29,067 nucleotides of DNA from a virus, in the IMG/VR virus record IMGVR_UViG_3300010935_000101, positions 1 to 29,067 of that record; one strand, written 5' to 3'. Under the pieces are notes generated by a model that was given only the letters and a program-made list of their open reading frames with translations, did no database searches and had not been told where the DNA came from. A program made the translations under genes and the position numbers. The stretch's first letter is position 1; each line of letters begins with the position of its first letter. This document shows positions 3,485 to 26,557 of the stretch, in pieces.

Positions 3485-3886
3485 ATGAACAACATATTTG
3501 AAAAAGCTGCAAGAACTAAGTTACGTTTTCAAACTGCTAGAGGTTCTCTATCAGTTGAACAGTTGTGGGATTTACCACTTGAATCAGGAGAGGTTAATCT
3601 CTACAAATTAGCAGAAGAACTTCTTGGCGAAGTATCTACTAAACCTGCAAAAAAACTTTCATTCTTTAAAAAGTCTGTATCAGCAGATGAAACAGCAGAA
3701 CTTAGGTTTGAAATTGTTAAGTACATTGTTGTAACAAGAGTTGCAGAGATTGAAGAGAAAACTAACAAAGCTGTTGTGGACTCTGAAAAAAGAGAACTTG
3801 ACCAACTGATTGCTGCAAAAGAGCAAGAAGCTAAAGGCAACTTATCTTTGGAAGAACTAAAAGCTGCAAGAGCCAAACTTAGTTAA
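3485..3886 (+). CDS. conserved phage coiled-coil protein (partner of the 676-aa gene)
   Basis: ATG at 3485 after AAGGA; motif FEKAARxKLRF...GxLSVEQLWDLPL. Confidence 0.8.
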   Translation: MNNIFEKAARTKLRFQTARGSLSVEQLWDLPLESGEVNLYKLAEELLGEVSTKPAKKLSFFKKSVSADETAELRFEIVKYIVVTRVAEIEEKTNKAVVDSEKRELDQLIAAKEQEAKGNLSLEELKAARAKLS

Positions 3887-3890
3887 TAGT

Positions 3891-3915
3891 TAGAGCACCA
3901 ATTTTTGGTGTTCTA
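3891..3915 (+). terminator. stem-loop (terminator or processing hairpin)
   Basis: TAGAGCACCA/TGGTGTTCTA just after the stop codon; no clear U-tract. Confidence 0.5.
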
Positions 3916-3938: not shown

Positions 3939-4307
3939 ATGAAGAATGATTTTAAGGTGGGCGATTGGGTAAGGAATATACCTCTTAATAAATTATATAA
4001 AGTAACAGAGTTAACAGAATATTCGATAACTATAACTAAGTGGCAATTTAATCTAACTGACACCGCTTCTCTGAATAGCTTTGAACTTTGGAAACCTAAA
4101 CCATTAGAGTGGTGTTGGTTTAGTAATGGTAATGAGCCTTACTTAAGGCAATACTCACACGGAATTGACAACGGGTTTTATTTTGATATAAACAATGTAC
4201 CATTCAGATTTTGTGAACCTTATATAGGAGAATTGCCCACGTTTATAAAGGAACAACATGACACAAATGATAATCCCAGTAGGACAACAAGTCAACGTAG
4301 AAAATAA
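3939..4307 (+). CDS. hypothetical protein, FKVGDWV...WKPKxxEWCWF paralog family
   Basis: ORF with SD; clear similarity to the C-terminal half of 21285..21872. Confidence 0.75.
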   Translation: MKNDFKVGDWVRNIPLNKLYKVTELTEYSITITKWQFNLTDTASLNSFELWKPKPLEWCWFSNGNEPYLRQYSHGIDNGFYFDINNVPFRFCEPYIGELPTFIKEQHDTNDNPSRTTSQRRK

Positions 4308-4365
4308 ATATGCTTACAATAGGCTGGAGATTAGCAGATTAACAAATTTCTCATACTCACCTTGA
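4258..4365 (+). CDS. possible 35-aa ORF
   Basis: AAAGGAACAAC-ATG context identical to that of the 26828 gene; MTQMIIPVGQQVNVENKYAYNRLEISRLTNFSYSP. Confidence 0.35.
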   Translation: MTQMIIPVGQQVNVENKYAYNRLEISRLTNFSYSP

Positions 4366-4367
4366 GT

Positions 4368-4910
4368 ATAACTGGCGTTCTAGTAATCACATCGTACGAT
4401 AACGAATCCTAAGCGTGGCTTGAGAACTACACAGCCTAACACTAGTAGATAACCCTGTGGATTTAAACTTGCAAAGGGAGAAGCTCGGAGAAAACCCAAG
4501 CACACATGGTTCAGCTTACAGGACCAACACAATATGTAAGTAGCTTGTTTATGGGCTTAAGCCACAATGTCAAATGGCAATTGCGTGGTATGTAAACTAG
4601 GGAACTACCTGAGCCAAAACTACGGGATAGTATCGGGTTTGGCCACTCGTTAGCCGAAGGGCAAATAAATACACAAAATCAGTATAGTTAACTGACGTAT
4701 ACCTATGTGTGAATTGTAGGCAGGTCTGGTATAAGCTACCCATCCTATAAAATGAACAAGCTAGCAGAGACTAACTACCTCTGTACAGTAAACTGCCGTA
4801 AGAAGTTTGCCAGCGATAGTATCAACGGATTTAAACCCGGCACCACACCTCCATGAAGTCAAGACATAAGTATCTTAGTATACTATAGCCAGTTATCTGA
4901 AAGAGGTGTG
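4368..4910 (+). ncRNA. candidate large structured ncRNA (~530-540 nt)
   Basis: terminal helix ATAACTGGC(4368-76)/GCCAGTTAT(4888-96) continued by TAGTA/TACTA; many internal helices; no long ORF; strand inferred from G-U pairs and the flanking genes. Confidence 0.6.
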
Positions 4911-4919
4911 ACTTTATAT

Positions 4920-4995
4920 GTCAAGGATGCATGTGTACACATGGTAGTAATAGGAACAGTCCCCTATGCGGTTCGAATCCGCTCCTTGACCACCA
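4920..4995 (+). ncRNA. tRNA-like element (non-canonical, no assignable anticodon)
   Basis: GTCAAGGA/TCCTTGAC acceptor, GCGG-TTCGAAT-CCGC T arm, ends in ACCA. Confidence 0.7.
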
Positions 4996-4998
4996 TTT

Positions 4999-5126
4999 TA
5001 AGTCTTCGATGAGCACACATTGAAGACAGAGTTAAAACCACTCTGCAGGACTGAGGTTCTTAAAAGAAGTCCTTAATCCAGTTTTACTAGGAAGTGTAAC
5101 CGGACATGTGTGTTCTTCGAAGCTTA
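4999..5126 (+). ncRNA. multibranch structured RNA with a ~20-bp closing stem
   Basis: 4999-5020 pairs with 5106-5126; internal hairpins CAGAGT/ACTCTG and AGGACT/AGTCCT. Confidence 0.55.
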
Positions 5127-5322
5127 TCACTTCAAATGGTTAGCCTAACCGCTAGCCTGCTCTGGTATTATGTAAGCAATACTCGTACCCCGATCCACGA
5201 GAGAGATCGGTACCTTGGTGGTACAAAGGCAATCAAACCACACCCTATGAAACCGATGGTCGAGACAGTTACAGGGTTACGAAACTGTGAACCAGCCCAG
5301 CGATGATAAGCTGGGATACTTA

Positions 5323-5381
5323 TGTTGTAGTGTGGGCACATCTGGAGACCCCAGACGCCAGTTCGATTCTGGAATATGACA
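5323..5381 (+). ncRNA. miniature tRNA-like element
   Basis: TGTTGTA/TATGACA acceptor-like stem, TCTGG/CCAGA arm, CCAG-TTCGATT-CTGG T arm. Confidence 0.55.
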
Positions 5382-5422
5382 CTAGGGTAGCTCCCTTGGA
5401 ACGGCTCTTTAGCGGGAGCCTT

Positions 5423-5508
5423 ATGAACTACCTATCTAGGTCGATAGAGCATCTCCTAACTGAACATTTGGAGTTAGCCTTCAGGTTCGAATCCTGAGTA
5501 GTTCATCA
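5423..5508 (+). ncRNA. tRNA-like element, possibly a diverged tRNA-Phe(GAA)
   Basis: ATGAACTAC/GTAGTTCAT acceptor, CTATC/GATAG D-like arm, CT-GAA-CA loop, TCAGG-TTCGAAT-CCTGA T arm. Confidence 0.6.
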
Positions 5509-5793
5509 TATATAGTTGATACCTAGCGAAGTAGGTATGAAGCAATCTGGCCAGATGGAGCAGACAATAACAATTTTACCGTCTGCTCTAGTGTGGCTAG
5601 TATGTTAGGTTTTGATGCCCACAGAACCATACTATATGCAAGGTGTAAGCTATTACCTATATCAAGTTTAGCAGTGCCTGGTGAGGTAACGTATAATAAT
5701 ACAGAAATGTACATATGGAGCCAGTATAACAAGCCACAGAGATGATAGTTGATATTGACTCTAGTATGTATATATTAATCAAAAGGAAACATT

Positions 5794-6012
5794 ATGAGTA
5801 AAACAACAATATCACAAGCACTTATGGAATTTGATAAGAAATACATAACTCCAGACACAGAGTTTATCCTCACTATACGAGATATAGCAAGAATGTATAA
5901 AACTGTACAGAGGAGAGAAAATGAGAACCTTGCTCTTAGAGCCAAGATTGCTATATTGGAACTAGAAGTTGAACATAATAAAACTAGACCTGAAAGGCTT
6001 ATTTATGGATAA
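5794..6012 (+). CDS. hypothetical protein
   Basis: 72-aa ORF with AAGGA SD. Confidence 0.7.
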   Translation: MSKTTISQALMEFDKKYITPDTEFILTIRDIARMYKTVQRRENENLALRAKIAILELEVEHNKTRPERLIYG

Positions 6013-9439: not shown

Positions 9440-10852
9440 ATGAACAAAAAAGAATTTATACATGACAGTAGCCACTTTATATTTAAAGAGGTTGCTAAGT
9501 CTGTAAATATGTTATGTGGATTAAGTAAAACATCATCTATGATTGCTAACTTATTCACTAACTTACCAGTAAAAGTTGAAGCGAGATTTATTGAATCTCA
9601 ACCTAACCCATCAAAGAAACTTAATGCATTGAATGAATTTGTGCATGCTTACATTAAGCACGACGATTCATCTACTGTATACATAGCTTTCTTTTACAAT
9701 TCTGACAATCAATTGAACAGAATTAGCAAAGCAATTCATAAACACCCAGAATTCTTCACTTACTTGTATATGCGTGAAGCACTGAAGCTTGTACGTCTTA
9801 TGAACACAAAGACTCACTATATAATGATGTCAGGAATTATCAAACACAATAACCCCGGAATTCCAGTTGAGTCTTATTATAGACTCAGTCAATCAGCATG
9901 TAATTACACAGTGAATAATACAATTCACGAATTGTTCGCCGGTTCTAAAATGGCAAACAAGCTTGACAAAATCCTGGAAGGACAACAGTACAAGTCAGCT
10001 TACAAAGATAAGTCGGAAATGGACGTATTGAAGGATTTACTTGTAATTAACCATAATGCAACTCCTACAATTACCAAACTGGACGAACAATTCAGCTATG
10101 ATGAATGGACTAATCTAGTATTCGATACTACTGATGGAGCAATTGAAAACAATGAATCAATCCAAACCGATTTAGGTGAATCTATAGCAACTCAACTTGC
10201 ATCTATGGCTCGTGGGTCCGGTTCAGCCTCAATTTTTGCTGAATTCTTTAAAGCAAAGAAAGTCAAAACGGGTTGGTTTAAAAAGTTAGCTGCAAAGTTT
10301 AGTTGTGAAGTATTCCATATGACAAACACATTCACTTCGGAATGGTCATCATTAAACATTACTTATCGTAAGAAGTTCAAAGCTCCTAATACAAAATATG
10401 AGGATAACAAATTATCAGTTGTGCTATCTGTAGATCATTCTGGCTCAGTCTCAACAGATGGATTGCAGAAGCTACTGTATCTATTTGAGAAGCACTCAAA
10501 GAAGATCACTCAATTGTTTGTACTAGTGCATGACACTGAAGTAGTTAAACAGTTTCAACTTGAGTCTAACTATGACATCAAATCGAACCCACAATTTGTG
10601 GAAGCACTTTCACATAGATTTGCAGTTGGTGGAACATCACACTTTGATGTATTCTCTAAGATTGATGCTATGCTCAAAGACAAAACAATAGATCCTAAAA
10701 AGACTATTTATATCTCTTTCTCGGACAACTATTCGGATATTCCCAATAGTTGGAAAGCTTTCCCAAGACTTAAGAAGTTATCAACAACTTTCTTGAGTCC
10801 AGTTAACAACCCAGTTAACTTACCAAATACTACAAATATCACAATGCAGTAG
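9440..10852 (+). CDS. vWA-domain protein (DUF2201-like), MoxR partner
   Basis: MIDAS motif VDHSGS, GGTS, FSD; ATG at 9440 after AAGGA. Confidence 0.8.
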   Translation: MNKKEFIHDSSHFIFKEVAKSVNMLCGLSKTSSMIANLFTNLPVKVEARFIESQPNPSKKLNALNEFVHAYIKHDDSSTVYIAFFYNSDNQLNRISKAIHKHPEFFTYLYMREALKLVRLMNTKTHYIMMSGIIKHNNPGIPVESYYRLSQSACNYTVNNTIHELFAGSKMANKLDKILEGQQYKSAYKDKSEMDVLKDLLVINHNATPTITKLDEQFSYDEWTNLVFDTTDGAIENNESIQTDLGESIATQLASMARGSGSASIFAEFFKAKKVKTGWFKKLAAKFSCEVFHMTNTFTSEWSSLNITYRKKFKAPNTKYEDNKLSVVLSVDHSGSVSTDGLQKLLYLFEKHSKKITQLFVLVHDTEVVKQFQLESNYDIKSNPQFVEALSHRFAVGGTSHFDVFSKIDAMLKDKTIDPKKTIYISFSDNYSDIPNSWKAFPRLKKLSTTFLSPVNNPVNLPNTTNITMQ

Positions 10853-10861
10853 TCTAAACTT

Positions 10862-10884
10862 AGCCCACTTTGGTGGGTTTTGTT
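10862..10884 (+). terminator. probable intrinsic terminator
   Basis: AGCCCAC-TTTG-GTGGGTT followed by a T-rich tail, directly after the vWA gene stop. Confidence 0.55.
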
Positions 10885-13266: not shown

Positions 13267-13271
13267 ACAAA

Positions 13272-13496
13272 TCGTGCCCCTTGATTTGGGGCTAGTATGG
13301 TTGTTACACTCATATGAAGAAGCGGTTAATCACCGTACTAGAACACGAAACGAAGTATCGTCGGCAACTAGATGCCGTTAATTTCATACCATGAGGTGCG
13401 CCTTTGAACGGACTTGGATTATCTAGCGGAACTACCTATTACAAGCAATCAATTGATGGTAGGTATATACCAAATGTGCCTACTAGTGAATTGATT
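13272..13496 (+). ncRNA. structured intergenic RNA or regulatory leader
   Basis: three-way junction at 13272-13348 plus hairpins at 13362-77 and 13447-96. Confidence 0.45.
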
Positions 13497-13510
13497 AACA
13501 AAGGAACTTT

Positions 13511-13642
13511 ATGCATACTTATTTAATTACATTTCCACACATATTTGCACATGCCCGATTCAAAGAGAATCTAGGGAAGTATTTTTTAAATGAGTTCAGC
13601 ACTAATATAATCACATACAACATTATAGAGGAAACAATATGA
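13511..13642 (+). CDS. small hypothetical protein (43 aa)
   Basis: AAGGA SD; ATGA overlap with the next gene. Confidence 0.5.
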   Translation: MHTYLITFPHIFAHARFKENLGKYFLNEFSTNIITYNIIEETI

Positions 13643-14127
13643 AAAAATTTGCTAATAATGGACAAGTAATTAAAGCTTACATAGATCAATCATATGAATT
13701 TGTAAGTAATTATAGAAACTCTTTATGGTTCAAGGGAACTGAGCTGTACTCATATGATTCTTTATTAGCAATTATTGATGTACCAAACAGTGTGCTATTA
13801 ATTGACAGTGCTATTAAAAATTACTCAAATACCACAGCTAAACAGACTTATGCATTATTAGAACAGTCAGGTAGTTTCACCCTGTATATAATACCATTAA
13901 AAACTAAACCTAACAAAGTACTAGAATATTATTGGAATCGCATTGAAATGACCATTGCCAAATTTAACCGAGCTTATAAACATAAGGATTATTACAAAAC
14001 TTGCATTAAGCAATTACTTGACGAAATAGAATCTTATGCATCTTATGTTGGAATTGATAAACGAAGTAAAGCTTATCAATTTAAACACCAAATTATTCAA
14101 AAATTATTTAAACACCAAATATTATAA
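13639..14127 (+). CDS. hypothetical phage protein
   Basis: GAGG SD; LYSY...YSxTTxK motif seen in phage hypotheticals. Confidence 0.75.
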   Translation: MKKFANNGQVIKAYIDQSYEFVSNYRNSLWFKGTELYSYDSLLAIIDVPNSVLLIDSAIKNYSNTTAKQTYALLEQSGSFTLYIIPLKTKPNKVLEYYWNRIEMTIAKFNRAYKHKDYYKTCIKQLLDEIESYASYVGIDKRSKAYQFKHQIIQKLFKHQIL

Positions 14128-14137
14128 AGGAGCCACT

Positions 14138-14320
14138 ATGGGTACATTTACATGTGAAGTTTGTCAGCAAGAGTTAGCTCTTGAAGAACAAGCATTCATA
14201 TTGGAGGGAGCTTGTCACCAATGCGAACTTGAGGAACTAGGATTTCAATGTTACCCTTGTGGTAGTCAATTCAATGCAGATAAACAAGGCAGTTGTAATG
14301 ACATCTGTGAAGAAAACTAA
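14138..14320 (+). CDS. small Cys-rich (zinc-binding) protein
   Basis: AAGGAG SD; CEVC, CHQC, CYPC, CNDIC. Confidence 0.65.
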   Translation: MGTFTCEVCQQELALEEQAFILEGACHQCELEELGFQCYPCGSQFNADKQGSCNDICEEN

Positions 14321-26228: not shown

Positions 26229-26369
26229 TAATTTTATAACACCAGATAATTTCTTATACGTGTATAAACTAACTGAACGTAATACAGTATAGAAATAACA
26301 TTAGGTCATCAACAATTGACAAGTTGACGGTAAGTAGCTTCTTAACTGGAGGTTCGCCTATTTTTACAT

Positions 26370-26458
26370 AGTGTGTTGGCTGAGTTGGCTTAAGGCAGCA
26401 GATTGCTAATTTGTCGAGTGTAACAGCTCCGAGGGTTCGAATCCCTCACACACTGCCA
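26370..26458 (+). tRNA. tRNA-Ser(GCT)
   Basis: AGTGTGT/ACACACT acceptor, discriminator G, encoded CCA, anticodon loop TT-GCT-AA, long variable arm, GAGGG-TTCGAAT-CCCTC T arm. Confidence 0.92.
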
Positions 26459-26470
26459 TTTTTATTTAAC

Positions 26471-26544
26471 TAGTGTCTTTACTAGTGGGACCACCTTTCA
26501 AGGTTTGGTATAAATTCGTGTGAGTCCCAGCAGTAAAGACATTA
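26471..26544 (+). promoter_or_regulatory. long interrupted hairpin between the tRNA and the next RBS
   Basis: TAGTGTCTTTACT/AGTAAAGACATTA plus TGGGAC/GTCCCA. Confidence 0.55.
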
Positions 26545-26557
26545 ATAAAGGATTACT

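Follow-up and report, generated by a model that had tools for sequence, protein, structure and literature searches.

A gene-free island in an N4-like phage genome with small structured RNAs interleaved with tRNA-shaped bodies that lack a regular anticodon arm

The DNA stretch analyzed here, hereafter called the window, comprises 29,067 nucleotides (positions 1 to 29,067) of IMG/VR virus record IMGVR_UViG_3300010935_000101 and forms the first 29 kb of a 96,760-bp record with a GC content of 36% and an estimated completeness of 90%. Gene products of the genome include a virion RNA polymerase split into two parts of 2967 and 1289 aa, a terminase, and a family A DNA polymerase, together with a primase, a helicase, and an AAA ATPase, and this set of polymerase, terminase, and replication genes marks the virus as an N4-like phage. 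A weak hint at a possible host group comes from PhoH, whose second-nearest Atlas cluster is commonest in Campylobacterota. Our subject is a noncoding island at 4350-5760 of the window, for which the original prediction had proposed an array of structured RNAs punctuated by non-decoding tRNA mimics, and which very probably holds real structured RNA genes. The features of the island are as follows (z, folding score relative to shuffled sequences unless an alignment is named; L375 is a related phage locus).

4366-4843, + strand: noncoding segment of 480 nt with raised GC content (0.43); z about -1; 6 to 14 stops per frame
4844-4910, + strand: module A, a three-way-junction RNA with a homologue in L375 and compensatory pairs
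4920-4995, + strand: tRNA-shaped RNA 1; 8-bp acceptor stem and 4-bp T stem; z -2.7
4999-5126, + strand: junction RNA; closing stem 5004-5020/5106-5122 around a conserved core; z -5.2
5138-5249, + strand: hairpin chain, tentative; weakly similar to, and collinear with, L375 12930-13050 (local alignment z 2.9)
5250-5316, + strand: two-hairpin module; aligns to L375 13052-13110 (alignment z 11.8) with 2 compensatory pairs
5323-5381, + strand: tRNA-shaped RNA 2, minimal, 59 nt; 7-bp acceptor stem with two G-U pairs and 4-bp T stem
5423-5508, + strand: tRNA-shaped RNA 3; 9-bp acceptor stem and 5-bp T stem; z -2.7
5540-5600, + strand: bulged hairpin, copy 1 (motif 5548-5599); z -5.1 for 5540-5602
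5600-5700, + strand: hairpin domain; motif-level likeness to L375 13250-13320 by eye, alignment not significant
5709-5772, + strand: bulged hairpin, copy 2; z -3.3 for 5705-5775; weak matches to the copies in loci L100 and L086

The island lies in the largest stretch of the genome free of open reading frames (ORFs), at 4308-5793. Because an unlisted 35-codon ORF with a good ribosome-binding site occupies 4258-4365, overlapping the end of a 122-aa ORF, the start of the gap was moved to 4366. Short ORFs inside the gap are unconvincing: they have no upstream ribosome-binding site, all 6 score below the small flanking genes downstream when assessed by phage codon usage, and four of these scores are negative. 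The gap is therefore free of credible genes, as had been proposed. It is also more GC-rich than its surroundings, again as noted before, with 0.433 for 4350-5760 compared to 0.35 and 0.31 in the flanks, the top value among 1,907 equal-sized windows of the genome (mean, 0.36; standard deviation [sd], 0.023). No Rfam family, including GOLLD, ROOL, YrlA, and transfer-messenger RNA (tmRNA), whose models had been suggested as a check, matched the island at gathering score, and up to an E value of 10 chance matches alone were obtained. ARAGORN with default settings made no call in the island, no meaningful match emerged when the island and its modules were compared by blastn with 50,697 phage records, and scans for sigma-70 promoters and terminators found no excess over shuffles. 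A comparison of the island with the whole records of 12 related viral contigs gave a single match (E 2e-4), which was dropped since it sits in coding DNA. The claim that hairpins recur over the entire length of the island does not stand, as 120-nt windows across 4300-4900 have z values near 0; folding exceeds shuffled controls for most of the later modules and fails to do so for 4368-4910 and 5323-5385.

The three tRNA-like bodies were recovered where they had been predicted. A descriptor for a T arm, with its T loop, stacked on an acceptor stem matches the island three times, compared to 0.009 times on average in 1,000 dinucleotide-shuffled sequences, and matches the rest of the genome only twice more, once at the real tRNA. 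All three bodies have a paired acceptor stem on a T arm with a canonical T loop (stacks of 8+4, 7+4, and 9+5), and none has a strict anticodon arm (5-bp stem, 7-nt loop, U33, and purine 37), a test passed by the control tRNA-Ser(GCU) at 26370, the only regular tRNA. Body 1 ends in an encoded CCA preceded by two unpaired bases and has a long-stemmed hairpin with a 4-nt loop at the D position, an 8-nt loop without U33 at the anticodon position, and no variable loop. Body 2 has a 5-nt loop at the anticodon position and no CCA, and it is the weakest of the three, weak if taken alone, because its fold is at chance level (z -0.8). Body 3 retains a canonical D-arm remnant, carries a 13-nt loop at the anticodon position, lacks CCA, and is called by ARAGORN solely at a 90% threshold. 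Neither Rfam RF00005 nor ARAGORN at default settings calls any of the bodies, and a tmRNA, with a tRNA-like domain and a tag reading frame, was not found in the island by ARAGORN or Rfam.

About 25 related phage loci (designated by L numbers) were gathered by way of the ATPase and a 133-aa upstream gene. Many of these relatives have a noncoding island, located at the same site, downstream of a 165-aa gene, or downstream of the polymerase, and their syntenic islands also contain true tRNAs. Others have no island at this site, including L372, a member of the closest ATPase cluster (cluster representative, 79% identical). Over 16.7 kb of clade islands, which were hand-picked and searched with a T-loop list widened after the relatives had been seen, the descriptor gave 33 matches on the + strand and 0 on the - strand, a strand control that is unaffected by these choices and that agrees with the + strand bias expected from the original prediction. 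A strict anticodon hairpin is present in 7 of the 30 bodies examined, and one further body is a near-regular tRNA-Lys; the others show unusual loops or carry insertions reaching about 100 nt, with acceptor and T stems still paired. The D-arm signature is kept in many of the 30. Several of these relatives hold bodies of particular kinds. In orthologous bodies with two middle arms at L100:10840-10941 and L088:3541-3640, the acceptor stem shows compensatory substitutions. Descendants of class II tRNAs, with a Leu-like D arm, occur at L093:6219, L094:7200, L096:11147, L099:8821, L104:16421, L106:5830, and L375:13627; this family is 120 to 170 nt long, with long inserts, altered T loops, and acceptor stems that are variable yet paired. 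At L094:7330-7490, the anticodon arm of one tRNA body encloses a second, tRNA-like gene, and the body at L095:12460-12535 has a regular anticodon hairpin reading UUA, possibly that of an ochre suppressor tRNA. A small H-type pseudoknot with a compensatory change heads tRNA islands at L088:3435, L095:12155, and L374:2785.

Such bodies might be decaying tRNA pseudogenes, kept by drift or as spacers, with selection acting on nothing more than the junction RNA, module A, and the bulged hairpins. We consider this unlikely. The D-arm remnant of body 3, the chance-level fold of body 2, and the ordinary tRNAs in the same clade islands would all fit it, as would the fact that these particular bodies are not common to any two phages. 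However, random decay would hit acceptor stems as often as anticodon arms, whereas the acceptor stems are fully paired and the T loops intact, and the anticodon arms have been replaced by long, well-formed inserts. In addition, the related bodies of L100 and L088 keep their stems through the compensatory changes mentioned above.

A collinear counterpart of the island is a 1.7-kb island in L375 that aligns with positions 4841-5378 of the window (nhmmer E 7e-12). Both begin with module A and continue in the same order with a tRNA body, the ends of the stem of the unit that follows, the hairpin chain, the 5250-5316 module, and a mini tRNA body. The two tRNA bodies of L375 occupy the same slots as those of the window and differ in sequence: the slot of body 1 holds a different body of 111 nt, and that of body 2 (L375 13131-13180) holds a mini tRNA body with the same T-stem flanks. 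This collinearity, together with compensatory changes, supports the proposed + strand array of structured RNAs with interleaved non-decoding tRNA bodies. Module A, whose 3′ end lies 9 nt before body 1, consists of an 8-bp closing stem (4844-4851/4903-4910), a long conserved single-stranded linker, and two hairpins, one of 5 bp and one of 3 bp with a UUAU loop. A model built from L375 alone detects it in the window (59 bits, E 2e-9), and all 16 pairs are kept, 6 of them through compensatory changes, compared to 25 to 58% paired in slid controls, a count that draws on two distinct sequences only. A pattern scan for module A gave 25 matches, all attributable to chance.

The hairpin chain that had been proposed for 5138-5315 stands for its second part. 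The 5250-5316 module, a stem with a purine-rich internal loop followed by a CCCAG/CUGGG hairpin with a GAUAA loop, folds with a z of -2.7 and aligns firmly with its counterpart, whereas 5138-5249 remains tentative; similarity to a relative is weak or nonsignificant for 5138-5250 and 5600-5700. Likewise, from the hairpin domain proposed for 5516-5738, the two bulged hairpins fold well and the 5600-5700 part has no significant alignment. Additional elements were seen in the relatives. An uncatalogued common 45-nt module (E 1e-4) occurs at L100:11120-11215, L086:14838-14930, L088:3648, and L375:13405, with a second, likewise uncatalogued hairpin unit downstream, and L375 holds more tRNA bodies and other RNAs at 10025-10865 and 13330-14140, around a 530-aa ORF without a Pfam family.

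The junction RNA, separated by 3 nt from the CCA of body 1, is the best lead of the island. Its core is made up of an AAGA linker, a hairpin with an AAACC-type loop, CAG, a variable hairpin, and a conserved 3′ linker ending in ACCGG. A first pattern had two matches, one true and one coding, and a scan of IMG/VR with the core pattern gave 11 matches, 10 of which are true copies representing 8 distinct sequences, including that of the window. A segment of L219 adopts, on independent folding, the shape of 4999-5126 around an unrelated closing stem, and a model made from L219 only recognizes the window (E 8e-4) as well as a short form present in another relative (E 2e-7). In an alignment of 7 copies, 99% of cells are paired, and 15 pairs show double changes, including all 11 closing-stem pairs; pair counts are inflated here because the alignments were fitted to models. 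The pairing level was not reached by any of 500 shuffles, and slid controls are 30 to 40% paired. The multibranch RNA predicted at this position is thus confirmed by its fold and by its covarying copies. Its unpaired linkers and loop are near-invariant, its stems are freer, and the element ranges from 80 to 125 nt. Two pseudoknots are possible. The first joins CC(G) of the loop to (C)GG at the 3′ side, and is pairable in all copies; one copy adds a G-C pair to it, and another adds an A-U pair. The second would pair GGUU of the variable loop with AACC of the 3′ linker and can form in every long copy (4 of 4) and in no short copy (0 of 4), a co-occurrence that is not an independent test because the copies are related.

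Outside the window, copies of the junction RNA are found in three settings: directly 3′ of tRNA-Thr(UGU) within tRNA arrays (L410, L411, and L413), heading or inside other tRNA-mimic islands (L406, L407, and L219), and alone between genes (L213 and L405). By tblastx, this genome shows no similarity to the flanks retrieved for the new loci, and these loci, which are short, therefore probably belong to other phage groups. No Rfam family overlaps the junction RNA, and freshwater-1 lies 170 nt off in L411. As a separate observation, the closing stems of long-stem RNAs at L081:830-920 and L106:6210-6310, each right after a CCA-ended unit, resemble that of 4999-5126, and their interiors differ.

The main alternative to the processed array concerns the junction RNA, which could be a self-cleaving ribozyme of an undescribed class that would trim the 3′ trailer of the preceding tRNA or tRNA body, with module A perhaps able to act likewise on the 5′ side. 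Theta ribozymes, which are HDV-like, are small RNAs that start at the 3′ ends of phage tRNAs and also occur in isolation (PMC10879173). The closing stem of the junction RNA lies within 3 nt of a tRNA 3′ end in the window, L410, L411, and L413, which is the theta position (PMC10879173), and a size of 80 to 125 nt, a multistem junction with invariant unpaired bases and free stems, and the two possible pseudoknots would all suit a catalytic RNA. On the other hand, a tRNA precedes only half of the copies, matches to Rfam ribozyme models are absent, and the topology is not that of HDV, as the first stem closes both ends. With the hammerhead defined by CUGAnGA and GAAA blocks next to stems (PMC10085705), its core is incomplete: the corresponding sequence is UUGAAGA-like in five copies and UAUAAGA in three, which thus lack the core G, and GAAA is absent after stem II, so that the hammerhead was rejected, noncircular permutations included. 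Twister, pistol, and hatchet, suggested like the other known classes by short motif resemblances, were dropped because their defining consensus cores and Rfam matches are missing, and a group I intron (RF00028, with its P7 guanosine site) has no match in the island, whereas true introns in relatives were detected. Moreover, ten similar-looking candidate motifs gave no cleavage in one study (PMC10085705). We therefore consider self-cleavage improbable. The broader proposal that the junction RNA founds a new catalytic or ligand-binding class at phage tRNA 3′ ends, in a self-processing array releasing anticodon-less decoys, is comparably improbable.

Upstream of module A, the original prediction had placed an ornate RNA at 4368-4910, which could be one large RNA of the GOLLD or ROOL kind closed by a 9-bp helix at 4368-4376/4888-4896. 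That helix does exist, the segment is noncoding and as GC-rich as the proven modules, and it adjoins tRNA-like genes, as do GOLLD and ROOL. Weak folding scores are also possible for large pseudoknotted RNAs. As one fold, however, 4368-4910 has a z of -0.2 to -1.3 relative to shuffles, and long helices show no clear excess, with counts within about 2 sd of shuffles. Neither an Rfam match nor a homologue was found, nhmmer and tblastx searches for 4366-4843 having covered 5.3 Mb of phage loci. The final 67 nt are module A, which L375 has without the upstream part. The putative closing helix overlaps a conserved hairpin of module A (4890-4899), and in L375, which carries module A, a heptamer matching the helix occurs only downstream, and the hairpin has no upstream partner; both points argue against the closing helix and against a single 4368-4910 RNA. 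The ornate RNA was thus not substantiated and is very doubtful, and the island as a whole is unlikely to be a single giant RNA. A degraded protein gene at 4366-4842 was likewise rejected, given 6 to 14 stops per frame and no tblastx match. The segment 4366-4843 may contain one or more RNAs.

At the other end of the island, the bulged hairpin is built from a GCAAU leader, a stem, an A/GU internal loop, a UGG/CUA helix, and a variable top. The ORF at 5794 has its ribosome-binding site about 10 nt beyond the end of copy 2, and two further elements lie elsewhere in the window.

13445-13500, + strand: bulged hairpin, copy 3 (motif 13450-13495); closes a second small gap (13267-13510), 8 nt before a ribosome-binding site
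3891-3915, + strand: hairpin with the same helix core, set 13 nt ahead of a ribosome-binding site and flanked by two upstream genes

Hairpins similar to that at 3891-3915 are present at the same place in L088, L095, and L372, and it is possibly a processing or termination signal. The gap at 13267-13510 is structured, and its upstream part is unmatched among relatives. Across the clade, there are 16 distinct matches to the bulged hairpin, one of them probably due to chance, and their paired stems vary heavily, a covariation that is partly circular because pairing was a selection criterion. Position and leader were not selected, and 13 of the 16 matches lie 6 to 16 nt before a ribosome-binding site. 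A pattern scan for the bulged hairpin produced 119 matches, and the 80 inspected were due to chance only. RNase III signals lie before T7 genes, and the geometry of the bulged hairpin resembles them. DNA hairpins serve N4-like phages as promoters. Together with the position of the bulged hairpin before ribosome-binding sites, this might suggest that the structures act in cis or at the DNA level, as promoter, replication, or recombination signals, rather than as released RNAs, but T loops, G-U pairs, and descriptor matches are strand specific, tRNA bodies and multiway junctions are RNA folds, and so this reading, which fits the bulged hairpin only, is highly improbable for the island.

Taken together, the modules are conserved as folds, through compensatory changes, on one strand and with their order kept in one relative; they move as units between sites and phages; and the tRNA bodies retain an acceptor stem and a T arm, the anticodon arm being free to change. 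Modules adjoin tRNA bodies with spacers of 3 to 9 nt. On balance, we lean toward the island being an accessory array of independent small-RNA genes on the coding strand, assembled by module shuffling, as the best overall explanation. In such an array, the genes would be copied with flanking genes as one transcript, host RNase P would cut at the 5′ side of each acceptor/T stack, and 3′-trimming nucleases would cut at the other side, so that these cuts would free the tRNA bodies and define the ends of module A, the junction RNA, and the 5138-5316 unit. There are precedents: RNase P cleaves a tRNA-like YrlA, which also gains CCA (PMC4201824), and irregular tRNA polycistrons are transcribed, with some of their products charged yet unused in translation (PMC5389517). 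Processing at the tRNA bodies is somewhat more probable than not. The bulged hairpins would be signals for a double-strand nuclease of the RNase III type or for protein binding, parting the array from the next mRNA. More speculatively, the freed tRNA-shaped RNAs could occupy host proteins that read the tRNA elbow or acceptor, such as tRNA-cutting or tRNA-sensing defenses, while offering no anticodon; such a decoy role is a tentative suggestion, and we regard it as rather unlikely. The junction RNA, in which loops and linkers are more conserved than stems, might have a binding or catalytic function of its own.

Several points weigh against the array of processed small RNAs. The stacks of the bodies differ from the 7+5 preferred by RNase P, two of the three bodies lack CCA, and none of the three has a close sequence homologue. 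The absence of the island from its site in L372 makes it dispensable there, and the stand-alone copies of the junction RNA in two phages make punctuation by tRNAs not obligatory for this element. Support for module A and the 5250-5316 module comes from two sequences each, and the choice of clade islands and the fitting of alignments described above count on the same side.

Other features of the genome and its relatives were recorded along the way. A second small island of the window (26229-26557) holds the tRNA-Ser(GCU), and its 60-nt hairpin (about 26300-26360) shares 85% identity with the beginning of a 740-nt island in L219. A gene similar to Thoeris anti-defense 2 (Tad2) is present in the genome (G000 30640-31137; L249:1640-2134; Pfam E 2e-24) and shows solely that the phage encounters defenses. 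No RtcB gene was found in the genome. The region L094:2140-3223 of an N4-like phage comprises a gene for a 259-aa reverse transcriptase (Pfam RVT_1) and, behind it, a gap of 300 nt that contains a T-arm-like hairpin, a candidate retron-like or mobile element. Group I introns occur in relatives at L095:16804-17084, L104:4310-4603, and L096:13950-14250 and 3640-3830; at least some of them are in the ATPase gene, with endonuclease genes after them, and the ATPase gene of the window is intact. An RNA family that follows the 165-aa gene and has no Rfam match is found at L100:10241-10530, L086:14535-15054, L088:15664, L092:8740, and L094:13863, and part of it recalls, by eye, the T4 RNA C probe sequence in PMC9697503.

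Phage tRNA clusters have long been known for stable RNAs without a function, such as T4 RNAs C and D, GOLLD, and ROOL, and the island adds small testable cases to them. RNAs C and D are co-transcribed with tRNAs and excised by host nucleases. Encoded by rnaC and rnaD in the T4 tRNA region, they are stable phage noncoding RNAs of unknown function (PMC9697503). They resemble the predicted RNAs of the island as noncoding phage RNAs without an assigned function, and the island is proposed to work alike; it differs from them in having no decoding tRNA and instead three mimics and at least three further RNA folds. GOLLD and ROOL are likewise phage encoded, near tRNA islands, and unassigned in function, and the island also lies beside tRNA-like bodies. 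However, no model matches even at an E value of 10, the covariance models of GOLLD, ROOL, and OLE have no match in the window or the L375 islands, and the island is a mosaic of units of 60 to 130 nt. Theta ribozymes share with the junction RNA a first stem at most 5 nt from a tRNA 3′ end in the window, L410, L411, and L413, which is not the case in the other four copies; unlike theta and other HDV-like ribozymes, the junction RNA has no nested double pseudoknot (P1 closing before P4) and no HDV-like model match.

Clustering of irregular tRNAs is the feature shared with the irregular-tRNA polycistrons described by Mukai et al. (PMC5389517). Body 1 in particular is akin to the 8/4 allo-tRNAs (PMC5389517) in its 8/4 stacking, its 12-bp acceptor branch (4920-4990), and its long D stem capped by a tetraloop. 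Body 1 lacks both the long variable arm and the anticodon loop of allo-tRNAs, and the context here is an N4-like phage in which no toxin-antitoxin neighbors were seen. YrlA and Y RNAs also mimic tRNAs by means of D and T arms and an acceptor, with RNase P cleavage in one case (PMC4201824), and the long stem of YrlA closing a multihairpin domain resembles the junction RNA in outline. In contrast to YrlA, the junction RNA has no T loop, the bodies of the island have open 5′ and 3′ acceptor ends rather than arms within a closed stem, and no Rfam match was obtained. A Ro60 gene (TROVE, PF05731) is absent from this genome (G000), which is about 90% complete; the control search detected it in 2 of 14 genomes.

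The claim that the island is the best candidate of the window for an undescribed system thus holds in part: its RNA families are absent from Rfam, and the kind of locus is known from T4 RNAs C and D and the irregular-tRNA polycistrons (PMC5389517). At least two of the RNA families appear uncatalogued, judged by Rfam 15 and apart from unnamed candidate lists in paper supplements. The junction RNA offers a minimal form of about 80 nt with an invariant core, strong covariation, and copies in seemingly unrelated phages. Clade-wide retention of the acceptor stem and T arm, combined with swapping of the anticodon arm, makes the decoy and punctuation ideas testable with defined RNAs.

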